Positions 1 through 10,615 of a stretch of DNA of 32,885 nt are shown here, one piece after another. Under the pieces are notes generated by a model that worked only from the letters and a program-made list of their open reading frames with translations, made no database searches and had not been told where the DNA came from. A program made the translations under genes and the position numbers. Source of the stretch: Eubacteriales bacterium (lineage in GTDB: Bacteria > Bacillota > Clostridia > Oscillospirales > CAG-272); contig JAZNKU010000244.1 of NCBI GenBank assembly GCA_045578685.1, forward strand, positions 1 through 32,885, in the 5' to 3' direction. Each line of letters starts with the position of its first letter. The stretch's first letter is position 1.

Positions 1-1
1 A

Positions 2-271
2 TATATTTCCGAGCATCTGGACAGAAGTGCAAATATGATAGCGTTTATTTCAAAAGCATACGTAAAATCCCAGAATTGCCGCGACGAGCTGGCTCTTGCC
101 CGTACCAAGGGGAAGCCGATGAATGTTATTTATATAGACGACGTGTTGCTGTCCCCGGGCCTAAAAATGCGCTACGGAAGGATTCAGGCACTGTTTATGC
201 AGCAAATGTCCGAATCCGAGCTTTTTGAAAGATTGTATCTCGTTGAAGCTATGACGGCTTCCAAGGAGTAG
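2..271 (+). CDS. TIR-domain protein, C-terminal fragment (5' end lies outside the window)
   Basis: The frame is open from nt 2 to the TAG at 269-271, so ATG 35 is probably internal. ..ISEHLDRSANMIAFISKAYVKSQNCRDELALA.. aligns position-for-position with ..IAEHIERCDLFIAFLSGSYLDFLDKVDELNYS.. of the TIR domain in the next gene. It carries a classic S-x-x-C-x-x-E-L TIR motif. Confidence 0.75.
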   Translation, partial: YISEHLDRSANMIAFISKAYVKSQNCRDELALARTKGKPMNVIYIDDVLLSPGLKMRYGRIQALFMQQMSESELFERLYLVEAMTASKE

Positions 272-279
272 GAGACATT

Positions 280-3216
280 ATGGAAAATTCAGTTTACAAG
301 CCTGATATTTATGAAGGCGGCGATCCGTATATTTTTGTCAGCTTTCATCAGAATGACAGAGAAAGAATTTTAAATATTCTTGAAAAACTTGATATGAGAG
401 GATTCCGCTTCTGGATCGATGACGGAATTTCTCCCGGTATGGAGACCGACGAGATCATAGCCGAGCATATCGAGAGATGTGATTTATTTATTGCGTTTTT
501 GTCCGGAAGTTATCTCGACTTTTTGGATAAGGTCGACGAGCTGAACTATTCAAGGGACACCAACAGGGAATATCTGCTGATATATCTGGAGGACGTGGTT
601 CTGCCTGCAGGTCTTGATATGAGATTTATGCGTTCCCAAAGCATCAGGGCATTTTCAATGAGCGATGAGGACGTATATTCTCAGCTTCTCAATATTGACG
701 GTGCAAAAAGATTTTACGGAATTACGGACACGAGTCTGCGTTCATCTGCGGAAAAGATTTTTGATGATCTCGAAAAGCTCTATCCCGAGCATAAGGTCTT
801 TGCTTTGGATGCTGTTGCCAAGCAGGTATCAAAGGGAATTTCGGAGCTGTACGTGCGTGCAGGTTATCCCAGCGCCGACAGACTTATGCTGGACTATGGC
901 TTTGCGCATATAAGTACCGATGATGCACGGGCTCTTCGCAGCAGTGTTCTCTATCAGCCCGGATTTGAGCCCGATATCATCAAGCCGAGAATAGATTATA
1001 TTGTGAATACACTTGCCAAGGATTATCCGGATAAACATATATCCGATAATCTGGCAAAAAGCCACAAATCTATCTATAAGTCGGTTCTGGGTATCAGCGT
1101 ATGGCTGGGATATGATTCCGCGGAGGAAATGTTAAGAGCCTACGGATTTACAGGTATATCCTCGGATGCCGGCCGAAGAGAGACCGACTGTAAGGCGGTT
1201 ATAGAACAGTTGAAGCTTCGTTATGAGGGTAAAGCTAAGCCTGCTTCCATAACGGGTATTATTGCGGAAAATCCGGACATTAAGGGTAATCTGAAAACAG
1301 CAATCAACCGTTCTTCCGAAATATACGGCATGACCTTACATCGGTATCTGACAAGTATAGGTCTTATCGTACGCCCCGAAAAAGAAAAGTGCACAAAGCT
1401 GGCGCTTGACAGAGTGAAGATAATCGAAGATATAAAGGAGCTTTACAGAACTCCCGGTCTTGATTACGGAAGTTTTGAGGATGCTGAGGGAACTCTTGAT
1501 CAGATTATCGTCAAGAAAAACAGAAAGAATGAGATTACTGTTACCGGATGCAGCTTTTGTGATGAAACGATGCGTATTCCCTACGGTATAGACTATATAG
1601 GAAATGAGTCATTTTATGCACAGGGTGATCTTAAAACACTTATTATTCCTCCCTCGGTAAAGGAGATAAAAGAATCTGCTTTTTCCGATTGTGATGGGTT
1701 GGAAACGGTGATCTTCTCCGAAGGATTGGAGCGCATTGGCAATCTTGCTTTTTCAGGCTGTACATCCTTGAAGAAGCTGGTGCTTCCACATTCTCTCAGG
1801 GATATCGGTAACGAAGCTTTTGCCGGATGTGAAGAGCTTTCGGAGGTTGAATTCAAAAACTTCAGAGTCAATATTCAGGAGGATGCATTCAACGATTGCC
1901 TGTATGAGCTTGAATATCTACAGGACGAGGGTGCATCTCCTGCCGATTACTTTGAACTTAACGTGGATAAGAAAAACAATGCCAAGATCACTGCATATAC
2001 CGGCGACGAGGAGGTTGTGGTTATCCCTGCTATGATAGCGGGACACCCTGTTATCTCTTTGGAAAAGGGTTGCTTTAAGGGTAACGAATACGTCAGAGAG
2101 ATATATATAAGCGATTATATTTCTGCGGTAAACGGTGACGTGTTCAAGGATTGCAAAAATCTGGAAAAGGTTCATCTTTCCGAATCGGTTAAATCTCTTA
2201 CGGGAACAGCCTTTGCGGGATGTACCAATCTTACTGAGATAAACATACCCGACAGCATGGAGGAGGTTCAGCGCGGTCTGTTCAAGGATTCGCCGCTGAC
2301 TACCTTATATGTTGGAAAGGGAACCAAAAAAATAAGTTCCGATGCCTTCTACAAGGGGGAGGCGGATTTTGCAACCGGAATGTATTTCAAAAAGAAATCT
2401 ATCGAAAATATTATAATCGATTCCTCCAACCCTTACCTCACCGTTAACGGTACGGCACTTCTTTCCGCTGACCAAAAAACTCTTATTGCCGAGCTTGGCG
2501 ATCCTGTTAAAGCGGTAATACCCGAGGGAGTAGAGGAAATATCGCCTCAGGCATACGACAGACTGGGATCTCTGTGTGAAATAGAATTCCCTTCAACTCT
2601 CAAGAAGATCGGAGAAAAGGCCTTTGCAGGTACCAATCTTAAAAGTGTTGAGCTGCCGCGCTCTCTTGAGGTTATAGAAGCACAGGCGTTCAGCTTCTGC
2701 CGGGTGCTATCCAATCTTGATGTAAATGAAGGACTCAGGATCATCGGTGCTCAAGCCTTTGCAGGATGTCCCATCGAGGACGTATATATTCCGGCATCGG
2801 TTGAGAGCATAGGTAACGACAGCTTCCTCGCTGTCTCTACCTATCAGGGCCAAATCAGTCAAAAATTCAGAGTGGATACGGCAAACCTTTATATTATAGC
2901 CGACGGAGTTGCGCTTTATGAAAGATCCGGAGACACGCTCAAGCTGATCAAGGCTTATCATCCCGATCTCAGATTTATGCCCAACACCCAAGCCCCCGAG
3001 CCTATAGAGTACAGCATAATTGAAGGTACTACCGAGATTTCGGCACAGGCATTCTCACGTTGCAACAACCTCAGCGGTTTGGTTATCCCGGAAAGCGTTC
3101 GTATTATAGGTGATATGGCATTCTGGGATTGCAGCAAATTATCGGAAATACATATTCCCGAGGGTTGTGTGGTCTCCGCCAAGGCCTTCTTCGGGATTTC
3201 ACCCCAAATGATATAA
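280..3216 (+). CDS. TIR domain - helical repeat linker - BspA-type leucine-rich repeat protein (978 aa), predicted cytoplasmic
   Basis: N-terminal TIR motifs: GDPYIFVSF, RGFRFWIDDGISPG, CDLFIAFLS, VDEL. Residues ~150-440 hold three ~60-80-aa repeats ending in GY.s...mL..YGF..IS. Residues ~440-978 are reiterated BspA/LRR_5-like units (IP.sV..IG..AF.gC..L..v). I saw no signal peptide, TM helix or P-loop. GGAGA lies upstream of ATG 280, and the gap to the upstream stop is 8 nt. Confidence 0.85.
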   Translation: MENSVYKPDIYEGGDPYIFVSFHQNDRERILNILEKLDMRGFRFWIDDGISPGMETDEIIAEHIERCDLFIAFLSGSYLDFLDKVDELNYSRDTNREYLLIYLEDVVLPAGLDMRFMRSQSIRAFSMSDEDVYSQLLNIDGAKRFYGITDTSLRSSAEKIFDDLEKLYPEHKVFALDAVAKQVSKGISELYVRAGYPSADRLMLDYGFAHISTDDARALRSSVLYQPGFEPDIIKPRIDYIVNTLAKDYPDKHISDNLAKSHKSIYKSVLGISVWLGYDSAEEMLRAYGFTGISSDAGRRETDCKAVIEQLKLRYEGKAKPASITGIIAENPDIKGNLKTAINRSSEIYGMTLHRYLTSIGLIVRPEKEKCTKLALDRVKIIEDIKELYRTPGLDYGSFEDAEGTLDQIIVKKNRKNEITVTGCSFCDETMRIPYGIDYIGNESFYAQGDLKTLIIPPSVKEIKESAFSDCDGLETVIFSEGLERIGNLAFSGCTSLKKLVLPHSLRDIGNEAFAGCEELSEVEFKNFRVNIQEDAFNDCLYELEYLQDEGASPADYFELNVDKKNNAKITAYTGDEEVVVIPAMIAGHPVISLEKGCFKGNEYVREIYISDYISAVNGDVFKDCKNLEKVHLSESVKSLTGTAFAGCTNLTEINIPDSMEEVQRGLFKDSPLTTLYVGKGTKKISSDAFYKGEADFATGMYFKKKSIENIIIDSSNPYLTVNGTALLSADQKTLIAELGDPVKAVIPEGVEEISPQAYDRLGSLCEIEFPSTLKKIGEKAFAGTNLKSVELPRSLEVIEAQAFSFCRVLSNLDVNEGLRIIGAQAFAGCPIEDVYIPASVESIGNDSFLAVSTYQGQISQKFRVDTANLYIIADGVALYERSGDTLKLIKAYHPDLRFMPNTQAPEPIEYSIIEGTTEISAQAFSRCNNLSGLVIPESVRIIGDMAFWDCSKLSEIHIPEGCVVSAKAFFGISPQMI

Positions 3217-3229
3217 AAGGAGAAATAAA

Positions 3230-3448
3230 ATGGAAAGACAACCTATCAGTTCATCAAATATTGTAAGTGCCGGTTATGACCCTGCTACACAGACCCTGGA
3301 GGTCGAGTTCAAGGGCGGTGTGGTGTGGCAGTATATGAATTTCCCTGAGTATATGTGGTTTGAATTTTTAGGCGCGCCCTCACAGGGAAAGTATTTTCAT
3401 GAGAACATCCGCAACAGATTTGGAGATTTAGGCTTCAGGGTACAGTAA
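3230..3448 (+). CDS. KTSC-domain small protein (72 aa)
   Basis: SSNIVSAGYDPATQTLEVEFKGGVVWQYMNFPEYMWFEFLGAPSQGKYFHENIRNRF matches the KTSC (PF13619-type) pattern. AAAGGAGA RBS lies 6 nt upstream. The gene starts 13 nt after the previous stop. Confidence 0.8.
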   Translation: MERQPISSSNIVSAGYDPATQTLEVEFKGGVVWQYMNFPEYMWFEFLGAPSQGKYFHENIRNRFGDLGFRVQ

Positions 3449-3449
3449 G

Positions 3450-5240
3450 ATGATCTGGAATATTTGCTTTATAATTTCCCCGTTAATCATTCTCGTTTCG
3501 GTCTTATATGCTTTGGCTGTGGCAAGAAATTATAAAAGCGACCGTGTTCTTACGCCCTTTTATATAATTTTTGCAGGAGTTTTTCTGTCGGTGTTTATAG
3601 GGTTGATACCGATGTTTTCCTCTATGCTTGCCGAAGAATCGGGATTTATACTTAAGCTTTGTGTTTTTGACATATTGCAGACGATACAGGTTTTTACCGT
3701 CAACGTGGGTGCGGATCTGATACTTGATAATATCAGCAATGCTTCGTCCTCTCTGAGCGGTGCATATTCGATGTATATGTCGGCACTGTTCTTTGTTGCA
3801 CCGGTTCTTACCTTTGGATTTTTGGTATCACTGTTCAAAAATCTTATCGAGGATCTGAATTACAGATTTCATTATTTCGGAGATGTATACGTATTTTCCG
3901 AGATGAACGAAAAGTCCTTGCTTCTTGCCGAAAGCATCAGAACAAAACATAAAAAAGCTCTGTTGGTCTTTACTGATGTGGACCGGGAGAACGGCGATGT
4001 ATTAAGTGAGCATGTTGAAACTGCTATGAGCTTGAAGGCGGTTATTCTGAAAAAGAATATTGTTGCGGCGGATCTTATAAGACATAGCAAAAAAGCGCAG
4101 ATGTTCCTTTTTGCGATCGGAGAAAAAGAAGACCGTAACCTGATAGATTCACTCAAGCTTCTGGAAAAGTACTCGCACAGAAAGAACACAAGCCTTTATA
4201 CGTTTTCCTCCGGCACGGAGGGCGAGCTTTTGCTGGCAAATGCCGAGAGAGGTGAGATAAAGCTCAGACGTGTAAATGAGGTGCGTTTCCTTATATACCG
4301 ATTTCTTTATGATGAGGGCGAACGTATTTTTTCCTCCGCTGTATCAACGGAATCCGATAAAAAGAAGATACATATCGTAATCGCGGGATTGGGAAAATAC
4401 GGCACGGAAATTCTTAAAGCCGTCACCTGGTTTTCGCAGATGGACGGTTATTGCGTGACCGTTGATGCTTTTGACAGCGATGAGCTTGCCGAAGAAAAGT
4501 TTTCAGCCCTTTGCTCCGAGCTTATGGATAATAGATATAACGGAGTTTTTATTCCCGGAGAAAGCGAGTATACGGTAAATATTCATTCCGGTGTGGATGT
4601 CAGAACAAAAAAATTTGCCGATACTCTGACAAGCTTTACCGAGGTAAGCTTTGTGTTTGTGTGTCTGGGAGATGATGAAAATAATATAAACCAGGCTGCC
4701 AATATCAGAATGCTCTGTGAACGCGCGGGACACAAGCCGATTATAAAAGCGGTAGTGTACAATACCGAGGAAAAGGAAGCATTGATCGGTATTACCAACT
4801 ATCGAGGTCAGCCATACGGGATTGAGCCTATGGGAGAGCTGTCCTATTCGTATTCCGAAGAAATACTTATGGGAAGCGAGCTTGAGAAGCTTGCACTTGA
4901 GCGTCATCTGAAATGGGGCAAGGAGGAGGAATTCTGGCAGTATGAGTATAATTACCGTTCCTCTATGGCTTCAGCCGTTCATATGAAAGCAAAGATAAAT
5001 TGTTGTATTCCGGGATCGGATAAAAGAGGAGAGGATCTTACCGTTGAGGAAAGAGACATTCTTGAAAATCTGGAGCACCGAAGATGGAATGCATATATGC
5101 GCTCGGAAGGTTATGTATACAGCGGATCTCCGGATAAATCCAGCAGAAACGATCTTGCCAAAATGCATCATGATCTTGTGGATTTTGAATCCTTGACAGA
5201 AGAGGAAAAAAGAAAGGACAGCAACGTTGCTTCCTTGTGA
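3450..5240 (+). CDS. Multi-pass membrane protein with cytoplasmic Rossmann-like (TrkA-N/RCK-type GxGxxG) module and C-terminal RyR-like domain (596 aa)
   Basis: About 4 hydrophobic helices lie in residues 1-135. IHIVIAGLGKYGTEILKAV...VTVDAFD is a beta1-GxGxxG-alpha-beta2-acidic Rossmann signature. The C-terminal LEHRRWNAYMRSEGYVYSGSPDKSSRNDLAKMHHDLVDFESLTEEEKRKD fits the bacterial RyR-domain pattern (E..H..W....GW.YG....K.H..LvpyeeL.eeeK..D). The ATG lies 1 nt after the KTSC stop, suggesting translational coupling. No K+ selectivity filter motif was seen. Confidence 0.7.
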   Translation: MIWNICFIISPLIILVSVLYALAVARNYKSDRVLTPFYIIFAGVFLSVFIGLIPMFSSMLAEESGFILKLCVFDILQTIQVFTVNVGADLILDNISNASSSLSGAYSMYMSALFFVAPVLTFGFLVSLFKNLIEDLNYRFHYFGDVYVFSEMNEKSLLLAESIRTKHKKALLVFTDVDRENGDVLSEHVETAMSLKAVILKKNIVAADLIRHSKKAQMFLFAIGEKEDRNLIDSLKLLEKYSHRKNTSLYTFSSGTEGELLLANAERGEIKLRRVNEVRFLIYRFLYDEGERIFSSAVSTESDKKKIHIVIAGLGKYGTEILKAVTWFSQMDGYCVTVDAFDSDELAEEKFSALCSELMDNRYNGVFIPGESEYTVNIHSGVDVRTKKFADTLTSFTEVSFVFVCLGDDENNINQAANIRMLCERAGHKPIIKAVVYNTEEKEALIGITNYRGQPYGIEPMGELSYSYSEEILMGSELEKLALERHLKWGKEEEFWQYEYNYRSSMASAVHMKAKINCCIPGSDKRGEDLTVEERDILENLEHRRWNAYMRSEGYVYSGSPDKSSRNDLAKMHHDLVDFESLTEEEKRKDSNVASL

Positions 5241-5257
5241 TTTGATATTGATAAAGA

Positions 5258-5302
5258 AAGCGGAGTGATTTTCACTCCGCTTTGTGATTTTCACTCCGCT
5301 TT
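5258..5302. terminator. Bidirectional intrinsic terminator between convergent genes, with a 19-bp tandem duplication of its 3' arm
   Basis: Stem AAGCGGAGTGA (5258-5268) pairs with TCACTCCGCTT (5272-5282), followed by TTT. GTGATTTTCACTCCGCTTT occurs at 5265-5283 and again perfectly at 5284-5302. Confidence 0.75.
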
Positions 5303-6646
5303 GACGTTTTTAAGCCATTTTCCGTAGTTGACCTTCCAGAAGGCTATGAAGCATTTTAATATCTGATCTCCCTTGAGGCAGATGAAGGTGACCACCAGGG
5401 GCCACTTGAATACATACGCCGAAAGGAAGGACATGGGGAGCACCAGACACCACATGAATATGGTATCCACCTTGAAAACAAAGGCGGTGTCGCCGCCGGA
5501 GCGAACTATGCCCGTATGTACTGCGTTCTGGTATGCGGTACCGATCACCGTTATCGACAGTACCAGCATAAACTGGTTGGATAGCTCGGTTGCGGCAGCC
5601 GATACGTTGTACATCGCATTTATGGGACCGCGGAGAAGGAAGATAAGTGCGCCTGTCACTAAACCGATACCGAGGAAAAGAATCTGAAAGGTTTTTGAAT
5701 AGAGAGGTATACGGGAAAGCTTACGCTCACCTATGGTCTTACCTATCATAACCGCTGTTGCTGTAGCCGAGGCGTAGGTCACAACGGTTATGACCGAGAA
5801 TACCGTGGAGGCTATTGAGTTTGCGGCGATGGCTTCCTTTGTGGTATGACCGAGAATTGCGGTCTGGAGCATCTGGGCAAAGCCCCACAGTACACCCGAG
5901 AAAAATACGGGAGCACCGGTCTTGAAATAGGTTTTAAACAGAGCCTTGTCAAAGGGGATAAGCTCCTTTGCCTTGAGCTTGATCTTTTTATCAATGCCGA
6001 ATACATATACACATACCACGGTAAACTCAAGGGCTCTTGCAATAAGCGTTGCATACGCCGCACCCTTGACACCCATAGCGGGACAGCCTAATTTACCGTA
6101 GATCATTATATAGTTCAGTCCGAGGTTAGTAAGCAACGCAAAGGTTGAGCTTGCAAAGCCGATAAGTACGGTTTCAACACTGCGGAGCATTGAGAGCATT
6201 GCCTGTGTGAAGGCGAATATAGGGTAGGTGAATACCATTATCTTAAGGTATAGCATACCCTGTCCTATAACATCTGCATCGTTTGAGAGCAGGGACAGAA
6301 CTCCGCGGGGCATGGCAAAGCATATGGCAAAGAGTACCATTGATACACCGACCGCCACCTTTGAGGATATAGCTGCCATATTCTTGACACCGTCTATACG
6401 GCCTTCTCCCCAGGCTCTGGCGCTGAATATCAGCGAGCCCTCTACGATGCCGGTTACCGACATCTGGAGAAGATACTGTATCTGGTTGACCAGTGCAACA
6501 CCCGACAGGGCATCCTCGCTGTACCGTCCCACCATAACGCTGTCTGTTATGTTTACCAGATAAACTATAACATTCTGCAAGGCTATGGCAAGGGTCAGAG
6601 AGATAAAAGTTATATAGAATTTCTTCTGTTTAACCAATAGTGACAT
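5291..6646 (-). CDS. MATE family efflux transporter
   Basis: About 450 aa with 12 TM-like segments and typical MATE motifs (VGRYSEDALSGVALVNQI, GAAYATLIAR). I prefer ATG at 6646 over the TTG at 6658 given in the ORF track. Confidence 0.85.
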   Translation of the reverse strand: MSLLVKQKKFYITFISLTLAIALQNVIVYLVNITDSVMVGRYSEDALSGVALVNQIQYLLQMSVTGIVEGSLIFSARAWGEGRIDGVKNMAAISSKVAVGVSMVLFAICFAMPRGVLSLLSNDADVIGQGMLYLKIMVFTYPIFAFTQAMLSMLRSVETVLIGFASSTFALLTNLGLNYIMIYGKLGCPAMGVKGAAYATLIARALEFTVVCVYVFGIDKKIKLKAKELIPFDKALFKTYFKTGAPVFFSGVLWGFAQMLQTAILGHTTKEAIAANSIASTVFSVITVVTYASATATAVMIGKTIGERKLSRIPLYSKTFQILFLGIGLVTGALIFLLRGPINAMYNVSAAATELSNQFMLVLSITVIGTAYQNAVHTGIVRSGGDTAFVFKVDTIFMWCLVLPMSFLSAYVFKWPLVVTFICLKGDQILKCFIAFWKVNYGKWLKNVKAE

Positions 6647-6660
6647 AATAAACCCCAAAT

Positions 6661-6686
6661 AAACTCCGCCACTGTGGGCGGAGTTT
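6661..6686 (-). terminator. Intrinsic terminator after the hydratase gene
   Basis: AAACTCCGCC (6661-6670) pairs with GGCGGAGTTT (6677-6686). On the minus strand the stem is followed by TTTATTT. Confidence 0.65.
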
Positions 6687-6693
6687 TGTCAGA

Positions 6694-8874
6694 TTATAAA
6701 TTAGCCTTATAGTAGTTGATGAGACAACCCTTTGCGATGATATCCTTTTCATCGTCGGTCAAGGGAGCCATCTTAAGCTCGAACTCGGTTGCAGTACCGT
6801 TTTCGGTGATAGCCCATGCTTCAAAGGACAGCTTGCCTTCGGTAACACCGGACTTAACGCCCTTAACGAGGATGTAGTCGCCTACCTTGAAGGGAAGCTC
6901 CTCGCTCTCAAAGAGGAAGGGAAGCATACCCCAGTTGATGAGGTTGGAGCGGTAACGCTTGGTAGCGTACTCAATAGCTATATTTGCAAGACCGCCGAGA
7001 ACTCTCTGGCAGGATGCAGCCTGTTCTCTTGCTGAGCCGTCACCGGGCTTACGTGCGTAAACAACGGAAGCGATCTCAAGTTCTGCAGGATCAACGCCGC
7101 AACGCTTTACAGCGTTTGCAACAGTCTCTGTGATCTCGCCCTTCTTAAATTCCTTTGCTCTGCCAACATACTCGGGATCCTTACGGGAGAGAGCAAAGGT
7201 AGAGAGCTTTTCGGGGTTAGAACGGTAAGAGGAGGTCTCGCCCGAGGGGATAAGCTCGTCGGTTGTGGTTACGTCATCTGTAATAAGAGAAGCAACACCG
7301 AGGAGGATGTTTTCACTAAGCTCGGGCTGTGCGGGCCAGTCGGTGATGTTGGGACCGAATTTAAGCTCAGCGGAAGCGTCTGCCTTGCCGTAGCCGAAGT
7401 AGCAACGGTTGCGGTATACGGTATCGTCAAAATGATACTCGGGAGTTGTATAGTCGATATCAAGCTCGGTTGCCGCAGTTACCTTACCGCCGTTAACAGC
7501 GGAAGCTGCGATAGAACGTGCGTCCATAAGAGCAACGAATGCGCTCTGACCGTCACCGGGCTTGGAGCCTTCACGGTTGGGGAAGTTACGGGTGGTGTGG
7601 CGGAGGGACAGTCCCTTGTTGGGCGGAACGTCGCCTGCACCGAAGCAAGGACCGCAGAATGCGGAGCGAACTGTTACACCTCTCTCAAGAAGTGTGGAAA
7701 CAACGCCGTTTTTGGTAAGCTCAAGGAACACGGGCTGGCTTGCGGGATATGCGGAGAGTGCGAACTCGTCTGCACCTACCCAGCCTGTCTTAAGAATATC
7801 GCTTGCAGCGCACATGTTGTCAAAGGTACCGCCGGCACAGCCTGCGATAACACCCTGTACAGCCTGAACTCTGCCGTCAGCGGTAATGTTTGCAATAAGG
7901 TCGTCAAGACCGTTTTCGTGAAGGATGTCCTTTGCATTAGCATTGAACTCCTTGATGGTATATGCATTGGAGGGATGGAAGGGAAGTGCGATCATACACT
8001 CAACGGAAGAAAGGTCTACCTCTACCATACCGTCGTATGCCGCAACCTCACCGGGAGCGAGCTTCTTAAATGCCTCGGGACGGTTGTGGAGCTTAAAGTA
8101 GTTTTCGGTCTTGTCGTCTGTCATCCAGATGGAGGAAAGACAGGTTGTCTCTGTGGTCATAACGTCGATACCGTTACGGTATTCCATAGGAAGATTTGCT
8201 ATACCGTCGCCGACGAACTCCATAACCTTGTTCTTGACAAAACCGTTCTTAAATACCGCACCGATTATAGCGATAGCAACGTCCTGAGGACCTACACCGG
8301 GCTTGGGGGCACCGGTAAGCTTGATTGCAACTACCTCGGGACAGTTGATGTCGTAGGTTCTCTTGAGATGCTGCTTAACCAGTTCGGGACCGCCCTCACC
8401 GATAGCCATAGTGCCAAGAGCACCGTATCTGGTATGGCTGTCAGAGCCAAGGAGCATTCTGCCGCAGCCGCTCATCATCTCACGCATATAGCTGTGGATA
8501 ACCGCCTGATGTGCGGGAACGTAGATACCGCCGTACTTCTTTGCGGCGGAGAGACCGAACATATGGTCATCCTCGTTGATGGTACCGCCAACAGCACAAA
8601 GACTGTTGTGACAGTTGGTCAGAACGTAGGGCAGAGGGAACTCGGTGAGTCCGCTTGCTCTTGCTGTCTGGATGATACCAACGTATGTAATATCGTGGGA
8701 TGCCATAGCATCAAATTTGATCTTTAACTTATCGGCATCTCCTGAGGTGTTGTGAGCCTGCAGGATAGAGTATGCCATAGTGTTCTTTCTGGCTTCCTCG
8801 TAAGAAACGGCAGGAGCGTCGATCACTTCGACACCGTTACGCAGGAAGACCTTTTCGCTTGTCAACTTTACCAT
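6694..8874 (-). CDS. Aconitase-family hydratase (aconitate hydratase-like, with C-terminal swivel domain)
   Basis: Aconitase Fe-S ligand motifs GSDSHT and [10 protein letters not shown] are present, with overall ~725-aa aconitase-like organisation. GGAGG lies 5 nt upstream of ATG at 8874. The TTG at 8886 in the ORF track sits inside that RBS. Confidence 0.8.
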
Positions 8875-9016
8875 TTTAACCTCCAAAGGGCTTTATATTA
8901 TAATAATGTATTATATCACTCAAAAATCGACCTGTCAACTTGTACAAAATCTTTTTACATTTTACTTGCAATATAAAGGCATTCGTGGTAAAATTATCAT
9001 ATCAAACTGGAGAAGT

Positions 9017-10615
9017 ATGCTTATGAAAAGATTTTTAGCATTTTTAATGACACTTACACTTGTGATTTCCGCTCTTTGTATCCCTGCGGTGGCAAAGGAG
9101 TTTTCTGACGTTTCGGCTGAAGACTGGTTTTACCCTTGCGTTAACGCCTGCCTTGAAAAGGGATATATGGTGGGTATCTCTGAGGATAAGTTTTCACCCT
9201 ATGAGCCTATAACCAGAGCTCAGCTCTGTCAGGTGCTTTATAACATAACCGAGGGTGAGGCAGAGTTTTCGCCATACTTTTCTGATGTTAAGGAGAGCGC
9301 TTGGTATGCAAAGGCGGTCTGCTGGGCAAAGGATACAGGCGTAGCTTACGGCACCTCTGAGGACAAGTTCTCTCCCCACCTGACCCTGACCCGCGAGCAG
9401 CTTGCGGTGTTCTATGCAAGATATACCGAGATATTCGGCATTACCCTTGCCGAAAAAACTCCTACCGACTATATGGATGCAGAGGATATATCCGACTGGG
9501 CACTTGAGGGTGTTGAGATCGCCAACAAGGCAGCACTTATAACTCCCCGTATGGCAGATATATTTCTTCCCCGAGGCACCGTGGCAAGAGCCGAGCTTGC
9601 AGGCTCTCTGCTTCGTCTTATGGGCGACTACGAAAACGGTGTCTATGACAGCTCCCGACATGTTCAGCTTGTGTATAACGATGTATCAAGTGCAGTTCTC
9701 GAGGTAGGTGCTGAAATTTCGGTCAAGCCTACCGTGTGGCCTTATGATGCAGCGGATACAAGAGTAAGCTTCAGCTCATCCGATCCCGCCGTGGCAGCGG
9801 TAGATGCATCCGGTAAGGTGACGGCAGTATCCAAGGGTAAGGCTTATATCACGGCTCGTAGCCTTGATGACGGACACAAGGCGGTGACTGTAATTACCGT
9901 AAATCCCAAGCCTGTCGGTAATATACTCCCAAAGGCGGCGGTACAGACACTTACAAGCAGCTATAATATAGAGATCAAGCCTATCGGCAGATATATAGAC
10001 CCCAACAAGCCTATGGTGGCTATCACCTATGACGACGGTCCCAGACCCAAGTCCACTAACCGTATTCTCGACTGTCTCGAAAAGTACGGTGCGGCAGCTA
10101 CCTTCTTTGAGCTCGGTTATCTTGCAAAGGCATATCCCGACTGCATCCGCCGTGAGGTCAAGATTGGATGCGAGGTAGCAAACCACTCCTGGGATCATCC
10201 CAATCTTGCTACCCTTTCGGGCAGCGGTGTTGCGAACCAGATAAACTCCACAAGCAACACCATATTCAACATCTGCGGAGTCAAGCCCAAGCTGCTTCGT
10301 CCCCCCTACGGCTCATACAATCAGACCGTCCGTAACAATGCGGGCATGCCCCTTATTATCTGGTCTATAGATACCCTTGACTGGAAGTACCGTGACGCAT
10401 CTTATGTTACCTCGGTTATCAAGAACCAGGTTACCGACGGCTCGGTTATCCTTATGCACTCTATCTACGATTCTACAGCTGCGGCAACAGAGGCGATAGT
10501 TCCTTGGCTTATTTCAAGAGGTTATCAGCTTGTAACAGTTTCCGAACTTGCAGAAGCAAGAGGTATAAAGCTGCAGAACGGAGCAAGCTATCATTCATTC
10601 TACAAAAAGAAGTAA
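9017..10615 (+). CDS. Secreted SLH-domain / Big_2-like / NodB polysaccharide deacetylase
   Basis: Signal peptide MLMKRFLAFLMTLTLVISALCIPAVA. Three SLH repeats (FSDV..WY...V.W....G...G.s..kFsP...lTR.Q). An Ig-like segment (VSFSSSDPAVAAVDASGKVTAVSKGKAYITA). NodB motifs (ITYDDGP, HSWDHPNL, LRPPYG). GGAGAAG RBS at 9009-9015. The start is ATG 9017 or 9023, not 8906. Confidence 0.85.
   Translation: MLMKRFLAFLMTLTLVISALCIPAVAKEFSDVSAEDWFYPCVNACLEKGYMVGISEDKFSPYEPITRAQLCQVLYNITEGEAEFSPYFSDVKESAWYAKAVCWAKDTGVAYGTSEDKFSPHLTLTREQLAVFYARYTEIFGITLAEKTPTDYMDAEDISDWALEGVEIANKAALITPRMADIFLPRGTVARAELAGSLLRLMGDYENGVYDSSRHVQLVYNDVSSAVLEVGAEISVKPTVWPYDAADTRVSFSSSDPAVAAVDASGKVTAVSKGKAYITARSLDDGHKAVTVITVNPKPVGNILPKAAVQTLTSSYNIEIKPIGRYIDPNKPMVAITYDDGPRPKSTNRILDCLEKYGAAATFFELGYLAKAYPDCIRREVKIGCEVANHSWDHPNLATLSGSGVANQINSTSNTIFNICGVKPKLLRPPYGSYNQTVRNNAGMPLIIWSIDTLDWKYRDASYVTSVIKNQVTDGSVILMHSIYDSTAAATEAIVPWLISRGYQLVTVSELAEARGIKLQNGASYHSFYKKK

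Follow-up and report, generated by a model that had tools for sequence, protein, structure and literature searches.

A four-gene operon encoding TIR, TIR-LRR, KTSC and membrane RCK/RyR-like proteins in gut Clostridia: a candidate Thoeris-like signalling system

The contig JAZNKU010000244.1 of a Eubacteriales bacterium (CAG-272; assembly GCA_045578685.1), analysed here over positions 1 to 32,885 of the forward strand and referred to as the window, opens with four genes in tight file on the + strand, which encode a small TIR protein, a protein in which a TIR domain is joined to leucine-rich repeats (LRR), a KTSC protein and a membrane protein of 596 residues. They occupy positions 2-271 (only the 3' part of the small TIR gene, 89 codons and the stop, since its 5' end is cut off by the contig start), 280-3216 (978 residues, made of a TIR domain, a middle region and BspA-type LRRs), 3230-3448 (72 residues, KTSC) and 3450-5240, separated by gaps of 8, 13 and 1 nucleotides (nt). 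Open reading frames (ORFs), Pfam and the sequence bear out what a sequence-only reading of this DNA had described, namely this gene set and its spacing, the domains, a Glu at the catalytic position of both TIRs and a terminator behind the fourth gene. That reading had proposed a Thoeris-like defence system not described before, and the analysis reported here leads to a similar view: because the most conserved part of the 596-residue protein resembles the RyR domain, which binds TIR-made cyclic ADP-ribose (cADPR), the operon is probably an undescribed anti-phage signalling system.

Both TIR proteins clear the Pfam cut-off for TIR_2, whereas their matches to ThsB_TIR are only marginal. The small TIR fragment scores 31.5 bits (E 2.8e-7) against a TIR_2 cut-off of 28, and the 978-residue protein matches TIR_2 at E 2.4e-12 over residues ~18-136 (nt 331-687) and LRR_5 at 1.6e-86 over residues ~430-978 (nt 1567-3213). 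The two are paralogues, as had been supposed, their TIRs being 34-40% identical (tblastn E 1e-23 to 1e-26), and the Glu at the catalytic position lies in the CRDEL motif of the small TIR (codon 86-88) and is E87 of the VDEL motif in the 978-residue protein (codon 538-540). In relatives, the small TIR protein measures 145-166 residues at full length; full-length orthologues were found in the metagenomic contigs L081, L084, L086 and L088, an N-terminally cut copy in L083, and the Glu is kept in the window fragment and these five relatives, i.e. in every copy in which the position can be read. E87 of the TIR-LRR protein is likewise invariant in all six readable copies. The N-terminus of the latter protein shows no evident signal peptide, and a cytoplasmic location is predicted. 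Between its TIR and LRR lies a region of 280 residues (141-420, nt 700-1539) with no significant Pfam match, which is the least conserved part of the protein (60% mean pairwise identity) and which tblastn found in none of the 80 genome loci examined for the wider family of the 596-residue protein (described below). Diversifying selection on the LRR was also considered and is unsupported, LRR identity (66%) being near that of the TIR (70%) and above that of the middle region.

The third protein matches Pfam KTSC (PF13619) at E 6.9e-23 (80.6 bits against a cut-off of 25) over profile positions 1-58 of 58. Translational coupling with the gene for the 596-residue protein is likely, since the KTSC stop codon lies 1 nt before the next start. 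A KTSC hidden Markov model (HMM) had no match in 81 scanned loci of the wider family of the 596-residue protein, and in the loci scanned the KTSC gene was found only together with the TIR/TIR-LRR pair. KTSC has been called DNA-binding and tied to HerA-type conflict systems (Iyer et al. 2022; PMC9503650), and besides that paper the literature searched on KTSC and on bacterial BspA-LRR/TIR proteins held nothing useful.

The 596-residue protein was modelled with AlphaFold2 (AF2) at a predicted local distance difference test (pLDDT) score of 82, and the model, Foldseek and profile comparisons uphold the earlier description of a protein with about four transmembrane (TM) helices, a GxGxxG Rossmann module and a RyR-like C-terminus. 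Its TM region (residues 1-140, nt 3450-3869) holds four hydrophobic helices, at residues 2-26, 36-59, 66-82 and 103-128, according to both the model and hydropathy. There follow two Rossmann domains, of which the first is RCK/KTN-like (residues 146-295, nt 3885-4334) and the second (residues 305-465, nt 4362-4844) carries the motif G313-x-G315-x-x-G318 (nt 4386-4403), and a helical C-terminal domain (residues 466-596, nt 4845-5237). The best fold matches in the PDB are to TrkA, headed by the tandem-RCK gating ring 4j9v (E 8e-6) and including 4g65 and 4j9u (E 8e-6 to 4e-5 for the three, all at a Foldseek probability of 1.0), and Slo1/BK channels, which also join a TM domain to tandem RCK domains, match as well (E 6e-4 and weaker). 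Among 94 homologues the three glycines are kept in 93-94, and D342, at the end of β2, is conserved in 87. The Rossmann fold, the GxGxxG motif, an acidic residue after β2 and a TrkA-like arrangement, which together mark a tandem RCK/KTN pair, were thus all found. The classical ligands of KTN/RCK domains are NAD(H) or ATP/ADP, and K+ channels and regulators of transport are as a rule built from a TM domain with tandem RCK domains behind it. The idea of a K+ channel was examined in turn and set aside: a stretch of the window's protein, TVNVGAD (residues 83-89), looks like a selectivity filter yet is unconserved in the family.

Conservation within the protein is highest in the C-terminal domain (76% as against 57-59% elsewhere), and profile comparisons place in this domain a truncated RyR-like repeat (residues ~535-596, nt 5052-5237), the sequence-profile homology to RyR domains spanning residues ~538-593. 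Comparison by hhalign with eight stand-alone RyR proteins, which match PF02026 at E 7e-36, gave a probability of 90.7% and E 1.2e-6. A search of the PDB with the family profile returned RyR-domain structures (6uhi at E 1.3e-6; 6uag, 3nrt and 4n05 at E 0.02-0.03) and, besides these, only weak ClpS matches (E 0.3 and above). H543 (codon 5076-5078) and W546 (codon 5085-5087) align to the RyR motif H-x-x-W, H573 (codon 5166-5168) to H-P-x-L-V-P-Y and D590 (codon 5217-5219) to E-E-E-K-x-x-D; the first three residues are present in 94/94 family members and D590 in 91/94. Homology of this C-terminus to the RyR domain is, on such profiles, probable rather than certain.

What such a domain might do beside TIR genes is suggested by a recent preprint, which reports that RyR-domain proteins either bind 2'cADPR and 3'cADPR, which are Thoeris signals, at nanomolar affinity or cleave them (Lopez Rivera et al., bioRxiv, May 2026; PMC13232231). 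In RyDEP the ligand is contacted by H75, W78, H100 and D117, which are kept family-wide, including in the R12 domains of animal RyR, and of which H75 and D117 form the catalytic dyad (PMC13232231). None of eight RyDEP homologues cleaved the signals and six bound them, the founding phage DyoEdafos enzyme being the only one that cleaves (PMC13232231). H543, W546, H573 and D590 correspond to these four residues by motif position, not by alignment to the RyDEP sequence. The RyR-like tail would most plausibly be a signal receptor, and the 596-residue protein appears to carry two strongly conserved nucleotide-type sites, in its RCK/KTN pair and in this tail. With such a putative pocket on a host membrane protein encoded beside TIR enzymes, that protein is a natural candidate for a combined receptor and effector.

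An exact-sequence look-up of the window's 596-residue protein found no match, and genomic contexts were therefore taken from homologues. The order small TIR, TIR-LRR, KTSC, 596-residue protein recurs with tight spacing in at least eight further metagenomic contigs (L081, L083, L084/L085, L086, L088, L091, L093 and L094), and the fragments L095-L098 are additional partial copies; in L084 an entire copy spans 4317-9791. It is kept for relatives of the 596-residue protein at 70, 67, 64, 61 and 55% identity (L083, L081, L084/L085, L086 and L088), and in these five contigs, whose flanks are visible, the flanking genes are all different. A metagenome scan with the N-terminus of the TIR-LRR protein gave eight loci, the L083 contig again among them, in which the order is kept to the contig ends. 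The TIR-LRR protein measures about 980 residues and the KTSC protein 72 residues in the relatives, and the four proteins diverge in step, their identity to the window copies being 67-78% for the small TIR, 61-71% for TIR-LRR, 75-86% for KTSC (mean pairwise 80%, the highest conservation in the cassette) and 55-70% for the membrane protein. The four genes, which had been taken for one operon from a single sequence, are thus co-conserved, and the cassette inserts as one unit at differing chromosomal sites. One relative of the 596-residue protein (L087, 63% identity) stands without cassette partners. Upstream of the cassette in L086 (positions 1-4328) lie genes for a DUF2201 (VWA-like) protein, two LRR_5 proteins and a bpMoxR-type AAA ATPase, which may be another conflict module.

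The 596-residue protein belongs to a much larger family, with hundreds of full-length homologues in metagenome-assembled genomes (MAGs) of Clostridia from gut and rumen, 2,611 clusters at 50% identity in a profile search and no Pfam model. In a genome scan, 302 of 185,579 species genomes held relatives, which is a patchy spread. Eighty loci from different species were examined, 76 of them with a called family gene from which distances could be measured, and TIR linkage was counted with a TIR HMM within about 8 kb of that gene. Neighbourhoods proved highly variable. Twenty of the 76 loci hold TIR genes, 27 in all, of which 26 share the strand of the family gene, and 14 lie within 1 kb as against 4 at 4-8 kb. 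These partners are diverse (TIR-NB-ARC-TPR, another TIR-LRR and others) and dispersed over the family tree, and TIR-STAND genes occur in the loci as well. Other recurrent partners are a protein of ~1,160 residues with two AAA+ domains and a peptidase-M41 domain (14 loci), Card1-like proteins, YbjN pairs, TerB-like and Zn-peptidase-like proteins, longer paralogues of the family and stand-alone RyR proteins. Because TIR and other conflict-type neighbours recur in this way, the family looks like a component of conflict systems with several partner sets.

Several of these neighbourhoods deserve mention in their own right. A stand-alone RyR gene (PF02026) is followed by a TIR gene in three of eight cases, directly in L072 (13359-15295) and L080 (11787-12423), with gaps of 20-54 nt, and with one small gene between them in L024 (8254-10381); this would be a host-side pairing on bacterial chromosomes that calls to mind the RyDEP sponges and enzymes of phages. 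Around distant family members there is a larger recurrent cluster (L052 2798-13890; L073 5726-12763; L076 6824-15278; L080 4559-12423; L024 867-10381), which runs from two YbjN genes through a Card1-like protein (419 residues), a TM-RCK-RyR protein (about 596 residues) and the AAA+/AAA+/peptidase-M41 protein (about 1,160 residues, no TM helix) to a longer TM-RCK-RyR paralogue (660-950 residues), a stand-alone RyR protein (94-125 residues) and then TerB-like, Zn-peptidase-like or TIR genes. This cluster looks like a separate multi-gene conflict system, and no description of it was found in the literature searched. In a Lachnospiraceae MAG, five TIR genes surround the family gene (L025, 128-7386 and 12287-13276), one of them encoding a double TIR and one a TIR-LRR protein of 1,004 residues. 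Finally, a polytopic membrane protein of ~380 residues (cluster c17), permease-like when judged by eye, abuts the family gene in L078 (6851-7981), L042 (6776-7972) and L067 (9797-10942).

Behind the operon, a terminator scan and the sequence place an intrinsic-terminator hairpin at 5257-5283 (12 pairs, 6 GC), with T-rich tails on both strands, which is common to the operon and the convergent MatE gene (ORF 5291-6658, - strand; PF01554, 1.6e-41). The 19-nt 3' arm of the hairpin with its tail (gtgattttcactccgcttt, 5265-5283) is duplicated in tandem at 5284-5302, and the MatE gene ends inside the second copy, with which its stop codon (5291-5293) and last codons overlap. Further along, an ORF of 431 codons at 7432-8727 (+) lies wholly antisense to the aconitase gene (6694-8886, - strand) and is most likely spurious.

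None of the partner domains of known TIR systems that were looked for with Pfam and PADLOC (SIR2, SLOG, Macro, CD-NTase, STING, Argonaute and STAND) is present in the four proteins, in keeping with the sequence-only reading. PADLOC recognised no system among them and gave the KTSC and 596-residue proteins no match of any kind. Pfam, PADLOC, the published effector descriptions (Yirmiya et al., bioRxiv 2025; 10.64898/2025.12.03.692087) and a comparison with the probable ThsK, described below, all failed to match the operon to a described system.

The operon is most likely a self-contained conflict operon directed against phages, and we lean towards viewing it as a new Thoeris-like system in which the TIR and TIR-LRR proteins act as sensors and signal generators, the TM-RCK-RyR-like protein as a signal-gated membrane effector and the KTSC protein as an accessory. 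We infer the enzymatic activity of the TIRs, the identity of the signal, its binding site, the action of the membrane domain and the defence phenotype along the following lines. Two paralogous TIR proteins, one bare and the other provided with a cytoplasmic BspA-type LRR that would recognise a component of the invader, would generate the signal, and they probably form a hetero-oligomer. Once activated, they would convert NAD+ into a second messenger derived from ADP-ribose (ADPR), which would be read by the cytoplasmic part of the 596-residue protein. The first candidate site is the RyR-like pocket with H543, W546, H573 and D590, and the dinucleotide-type GxGxxG site of the tandem RCK/KTN ‘gating ring’ might serve as a second or alternative one. 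Binding would then be passed on to the four-helix membrane domain, which would open or disrupt the membrane (ion flux, depolarization) and arrest the infected cell. The KTSC protein would be an accessory translationally coupled to the effector, maybe a nucleic-acid-binding co-sensor or regulator.

A number of observations weigh against this scenario. The Pfam RyR model (PF02026) scores the 596-residue protein below threshold (16.4 vs 27.4 bits, E 0.011), and it matches 11 of 20 family members, every one of them sub-threshold (best E 0.005). The RyR-like repeat lacks its last helix, the protein stopping a few residues after the EEEKxxD motif; an AF2 model of the C-terminal 131 residues alone is poor (pLDDT 61.5), the RyR-like region scoring about 50-60 in AF2 models; and when that C-terminal model was compared with the PDB and BFVD by Foldseek, RyR proteins ranked first and none was significant. 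The RyR assignment rests on sequence profiles because of this low confidence of the C-terminal models and the non-significant Foldseek matches. Pfam TrkA_N likewise stays below its curated cut-off for the 596-residue protein (E 0.04) and in 12 of 20 family members (best 8e-4), and the TM domain has no recognizable pore signature, P-loop or K+ selectivity filter. As for the TIR proteins, PADLOC gives them only marginal ThsB matches (E ~0.008), and the LRR region, at 66% identity, is no more variable than the TIR. In the wider family, about half of the loci have no recognizable conflict-type partner and 56 of 76 have no TIR gene within about 8 kb. The expectation that homologues of the 596-residue protein would sit beside TIR genes therefore holds only in part: such linkage recurs with diverse TIRs across the family tree, but most loci are TIR-free, the outcome that the sequence-only reading had itself named as speaking against it. 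As to the defence islands that it had proposed to look for, the visible flank in the window consists of genes for MatE, aconitase, a tRNA methyltransferase and ribosomal protein L10, all housekeeping. The Thoeris-like proposal as a whole is thus left with a co-conserved module, no match to a known system, TIR linkage and nucleotide-type sites on one side, and a mostly TIR-free family and a housekeeping flank on the other.

These observations may be accommodated in other ways. TIRs deplete NAD+ as effectors in TIR-STAND/Avs, TIR-pAgo and some CBASS systems, and roles in the operon might be distributed accordingly, the two TIR proteins depleting NAD+ and the membrane protein acting as a sensor or regulator, which could respond when an entering phage perturbs the membrane or the ions, or could read the NAD+/NADH/ADPR pool by means of its KTN and RyR-like sites. 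The TrkA-like fold and the classical ligands of KTN/RCK domains would suit such a sensor, and the TIR partners found in the wider family include several TIR-NB-ARC-TPR proteins, usually self-contained sensor-effectors, a type of TIR that Yirmiya et al. exclude from Thoeris (10.64898/2025.12.03.692087). However, a sensor-less small TIR together with a TIR-LRR is an arrangement typical of ThsB-like proteins, what is best conserved in the membrane protein resembles the pocket of a domain family that binds the products of TIRs rather than their substrates, and a TM domain as the sole non-sensor module better fits an effector, all of which makes a reversal of roles unlikely. A variant in which the RyR-like domain quenches the signal, as a host glycosidase or a RyDEP-like sponge, would have the 596-residue protein fix the threshold of TIR signalling or bring such signalling to an end, with killing left to NAD+ depletion by the TIRs or to an unlinked effector. 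Counterparts of the catalytic dyad H75/D117 of RyDEP are indeed kept (H543 and D590), and the stand-alone RyR genes beside TIR genes in related loci do look like sponges or regulators. Yet the four TM helices and the tandem RCK ring would then be left unexplained, the RyDEP homologues bound rather than cleaved the signals in the preprint cited above (PMC13232231), and a system with TIRs as its sole effectors would need no diffusible signal, so that we consider quenching very unlikely.

The family might also have no part in immunity and consist of nucleotide-regulated cation transporters or channels serving the ordinary physiology of gut Clostridia, the TIR, TIR-LRR and KTSC genes being a regulatory addition peculiar to the lineage or an adjacent module with another role, e.g. 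in NAD-linked signalling unrelated to phages. This would agree with the TM and tandem-RCK build, with the housekeeping flanks of the cassette, with the housekeeping-looking neighbours that are all that about half of the family has, and with the permease-like c17 protein (by eye) in three loci. It is nevertheless ranked low because the distribution is patchy (302/185,579 species) and the neighbourhoods are highly variable; moreover, recurrent links to TIR, Card1-like, TerB-like, YbjN and AAA+/protease genes are typical of conflict systems, and the four genes enter the chromosome together and at differing sites. A physiological role of this kind is therefore regarded as quite unlikely, and the signal-gated membrane effector is retained as the working view of the 596-residue protein.

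If the Thoeris-like proposal is correct, the RyR domain would for the first time have the role of a receptor on the host side; to our knowledge, its action has until now been demonstrated only for proteins of phage counter-defence, which bind or cleave 2'/3'cADPR. Special interest attaches to the possible bacterial link between a cADPR-type signal and a RyR-repeat membrane protein, as the coupling of such ligands to membrane conductance by a RyR repeat, a question that is open for animal RyR, would become testable in a small bacterial protein. The action of cADPR on ryanodine receptors in animals has long been disputed. A much bolder extension, tentative and in our opinion rather doubtful, would make the family ion-conducting membrane proteins gated directly by a TIR-made cyclic ADP-ribose isomer, which would bind in the RyR-repeat pocket while the RCK ring transduced the signal. 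The animal cADPR-RyR axis would then have a prokaryotic counterpart, from which it might even have evolved and which would be driven by a cytoplasmic, NB-ARC-free TIR-LRR receptor, the same effector family being the hub of the second, larger conflict system of Clostridia (YbjN / Card1-like / AAA+-M41 protease / stand-alone RyR / TerB-like). The Thoeris-like proposal would also supply a bacterial TIR-LRR sensor to be compared with plant TIR-NB-LRR proteins (TNLs) and animal Toll-like receptors (TLRs), and annotation of a large family without a Pfam model would touch many genomes. Finally, a Thoeris-like type would be added from strictly anaerobic Clostridia of gut and rumen; the operons tested in one recent study were mostly taken from relatives of Escherichia coli or Bacillus subtilis (Yirmiya et al., bioRxiv 2025; 10.64898/2025.12.03.692087).

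How do these proteins compare with known systems? The animal RyR/cADPR axis, plant TNLs and TLRs share with the operon, as it is interpreted here, a domain vocabulary, i.e. a RyR repeat on an ion-conducting membrane protein, TIRs with products of the cADPR type and the combination of TIR and LRR. There is, however, no homology to animal RyR, TNLs or TLRs outside the shared domains, the LRRs of the bacterial protein are cytoplasmic and of BspA type, the TIR-LRR protein has no NB-ARC domain, and an evolutionary link to these animal and plant systems is speculative. Closer in architecture are TrkA-TrkH, MthK and BK/Slo1, in which a membrane domain is likewise followed by two Rossmann-type RCK domains with a GxGxxG site. 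The 596-residue protein differs from these channels and transporters in its sequence (~10% identity), in a four-helix membrane domain that has neither P-loop nor K+ filter, in the added RyR-like domain and in its neighbours, which are TIR and conflict genes rather than trkH or ktrB. Its tail resembles RyDEP and R12 (PF02026; PMC13232231) and the ‘putative ryanodine receptor’ of Bacteroides thetaiotaomicron (3nrt/6uag) in profile homology and in the H-x-x-W, H and D residues. RyDEP-type proteins are small, soluble, viral or bacterial, and act against host immunity as dimerizing sponges or glycosidases (PMC13232231), whereas here a single, C-terminally truncated repeat stands at the end of a host membrane protein and is proposed to be a receptor.

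The most instructive comparison is with Thoeris, of which types V-XI have recently been defined together with 29 predicted effector configurations (Yirmiya et al., bioRxiv 2025; 10.64898/2025.12.03.692087). RyR, KTSC, TrkA, RCK and LRR are unmentioned in the text of that study and in a part of its tables, and the motif strings of both TIRs are absent from a part of its Table S1 (10.64898/2025.12.03.692087). None of the named effectors (ThsA, ThsC-L) was matched, their domains being absent according to Pfam and PADLOC, with a direct sequence comparison in the case of the probable ThsK only. The latter was reached by a protein search that found a Bacillus cereus TIR that shares 89% identity with the published type X TIR, the adjoining gene being taken as the probable ThsK; a plasmid search with the same published TIR yielded no operons other than type II (Macro) ones. 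The probable ThsK is a multi-TM protein of 223-246 residues with no cytoplasmic domain and no Pfam match, in which BLASTP detected no similarity to the 596-residue protein, and the type X TIR belongs to ThsB_TIR (PF08937) whereas the TIRs studied here are TIR_2. Unlike Thoeris effectors, moreover, the 596-residue protein has no SIR2-SLOG, Macro, caspase, DUF2270, DUF6650, SLATT, CMP-hydrolase or HIT domain, and the fusion of a TIR to LRRs, the extra KTSC gene and the gut Clostridia hosts set the operon apart from described Thoeris systems. The likenesses lie at the level of organization. As in Thoeris I-XI, TIR genes that keep the catalytic Glu adjoin a gene whose product joins a predicted sensing domain to a predicted toxic module; as in type III, there are several TIR paralogues in one operon; and, as elsewhere in Thoeris, one effector family is combined with differing TIRs. 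The proposed path from a TIR signal to a membrane-damaging protein, finally, recalls type II (Macro-TM, His-ADPR), where sensing is by the Macro domain that the 596-residue protein does not have, and type X, where a TIR is paired with the ‘ion channel’ ThsK. The effector family has thus probably not been described before, and the principle by which it would act is probably the one known from Thoeris.

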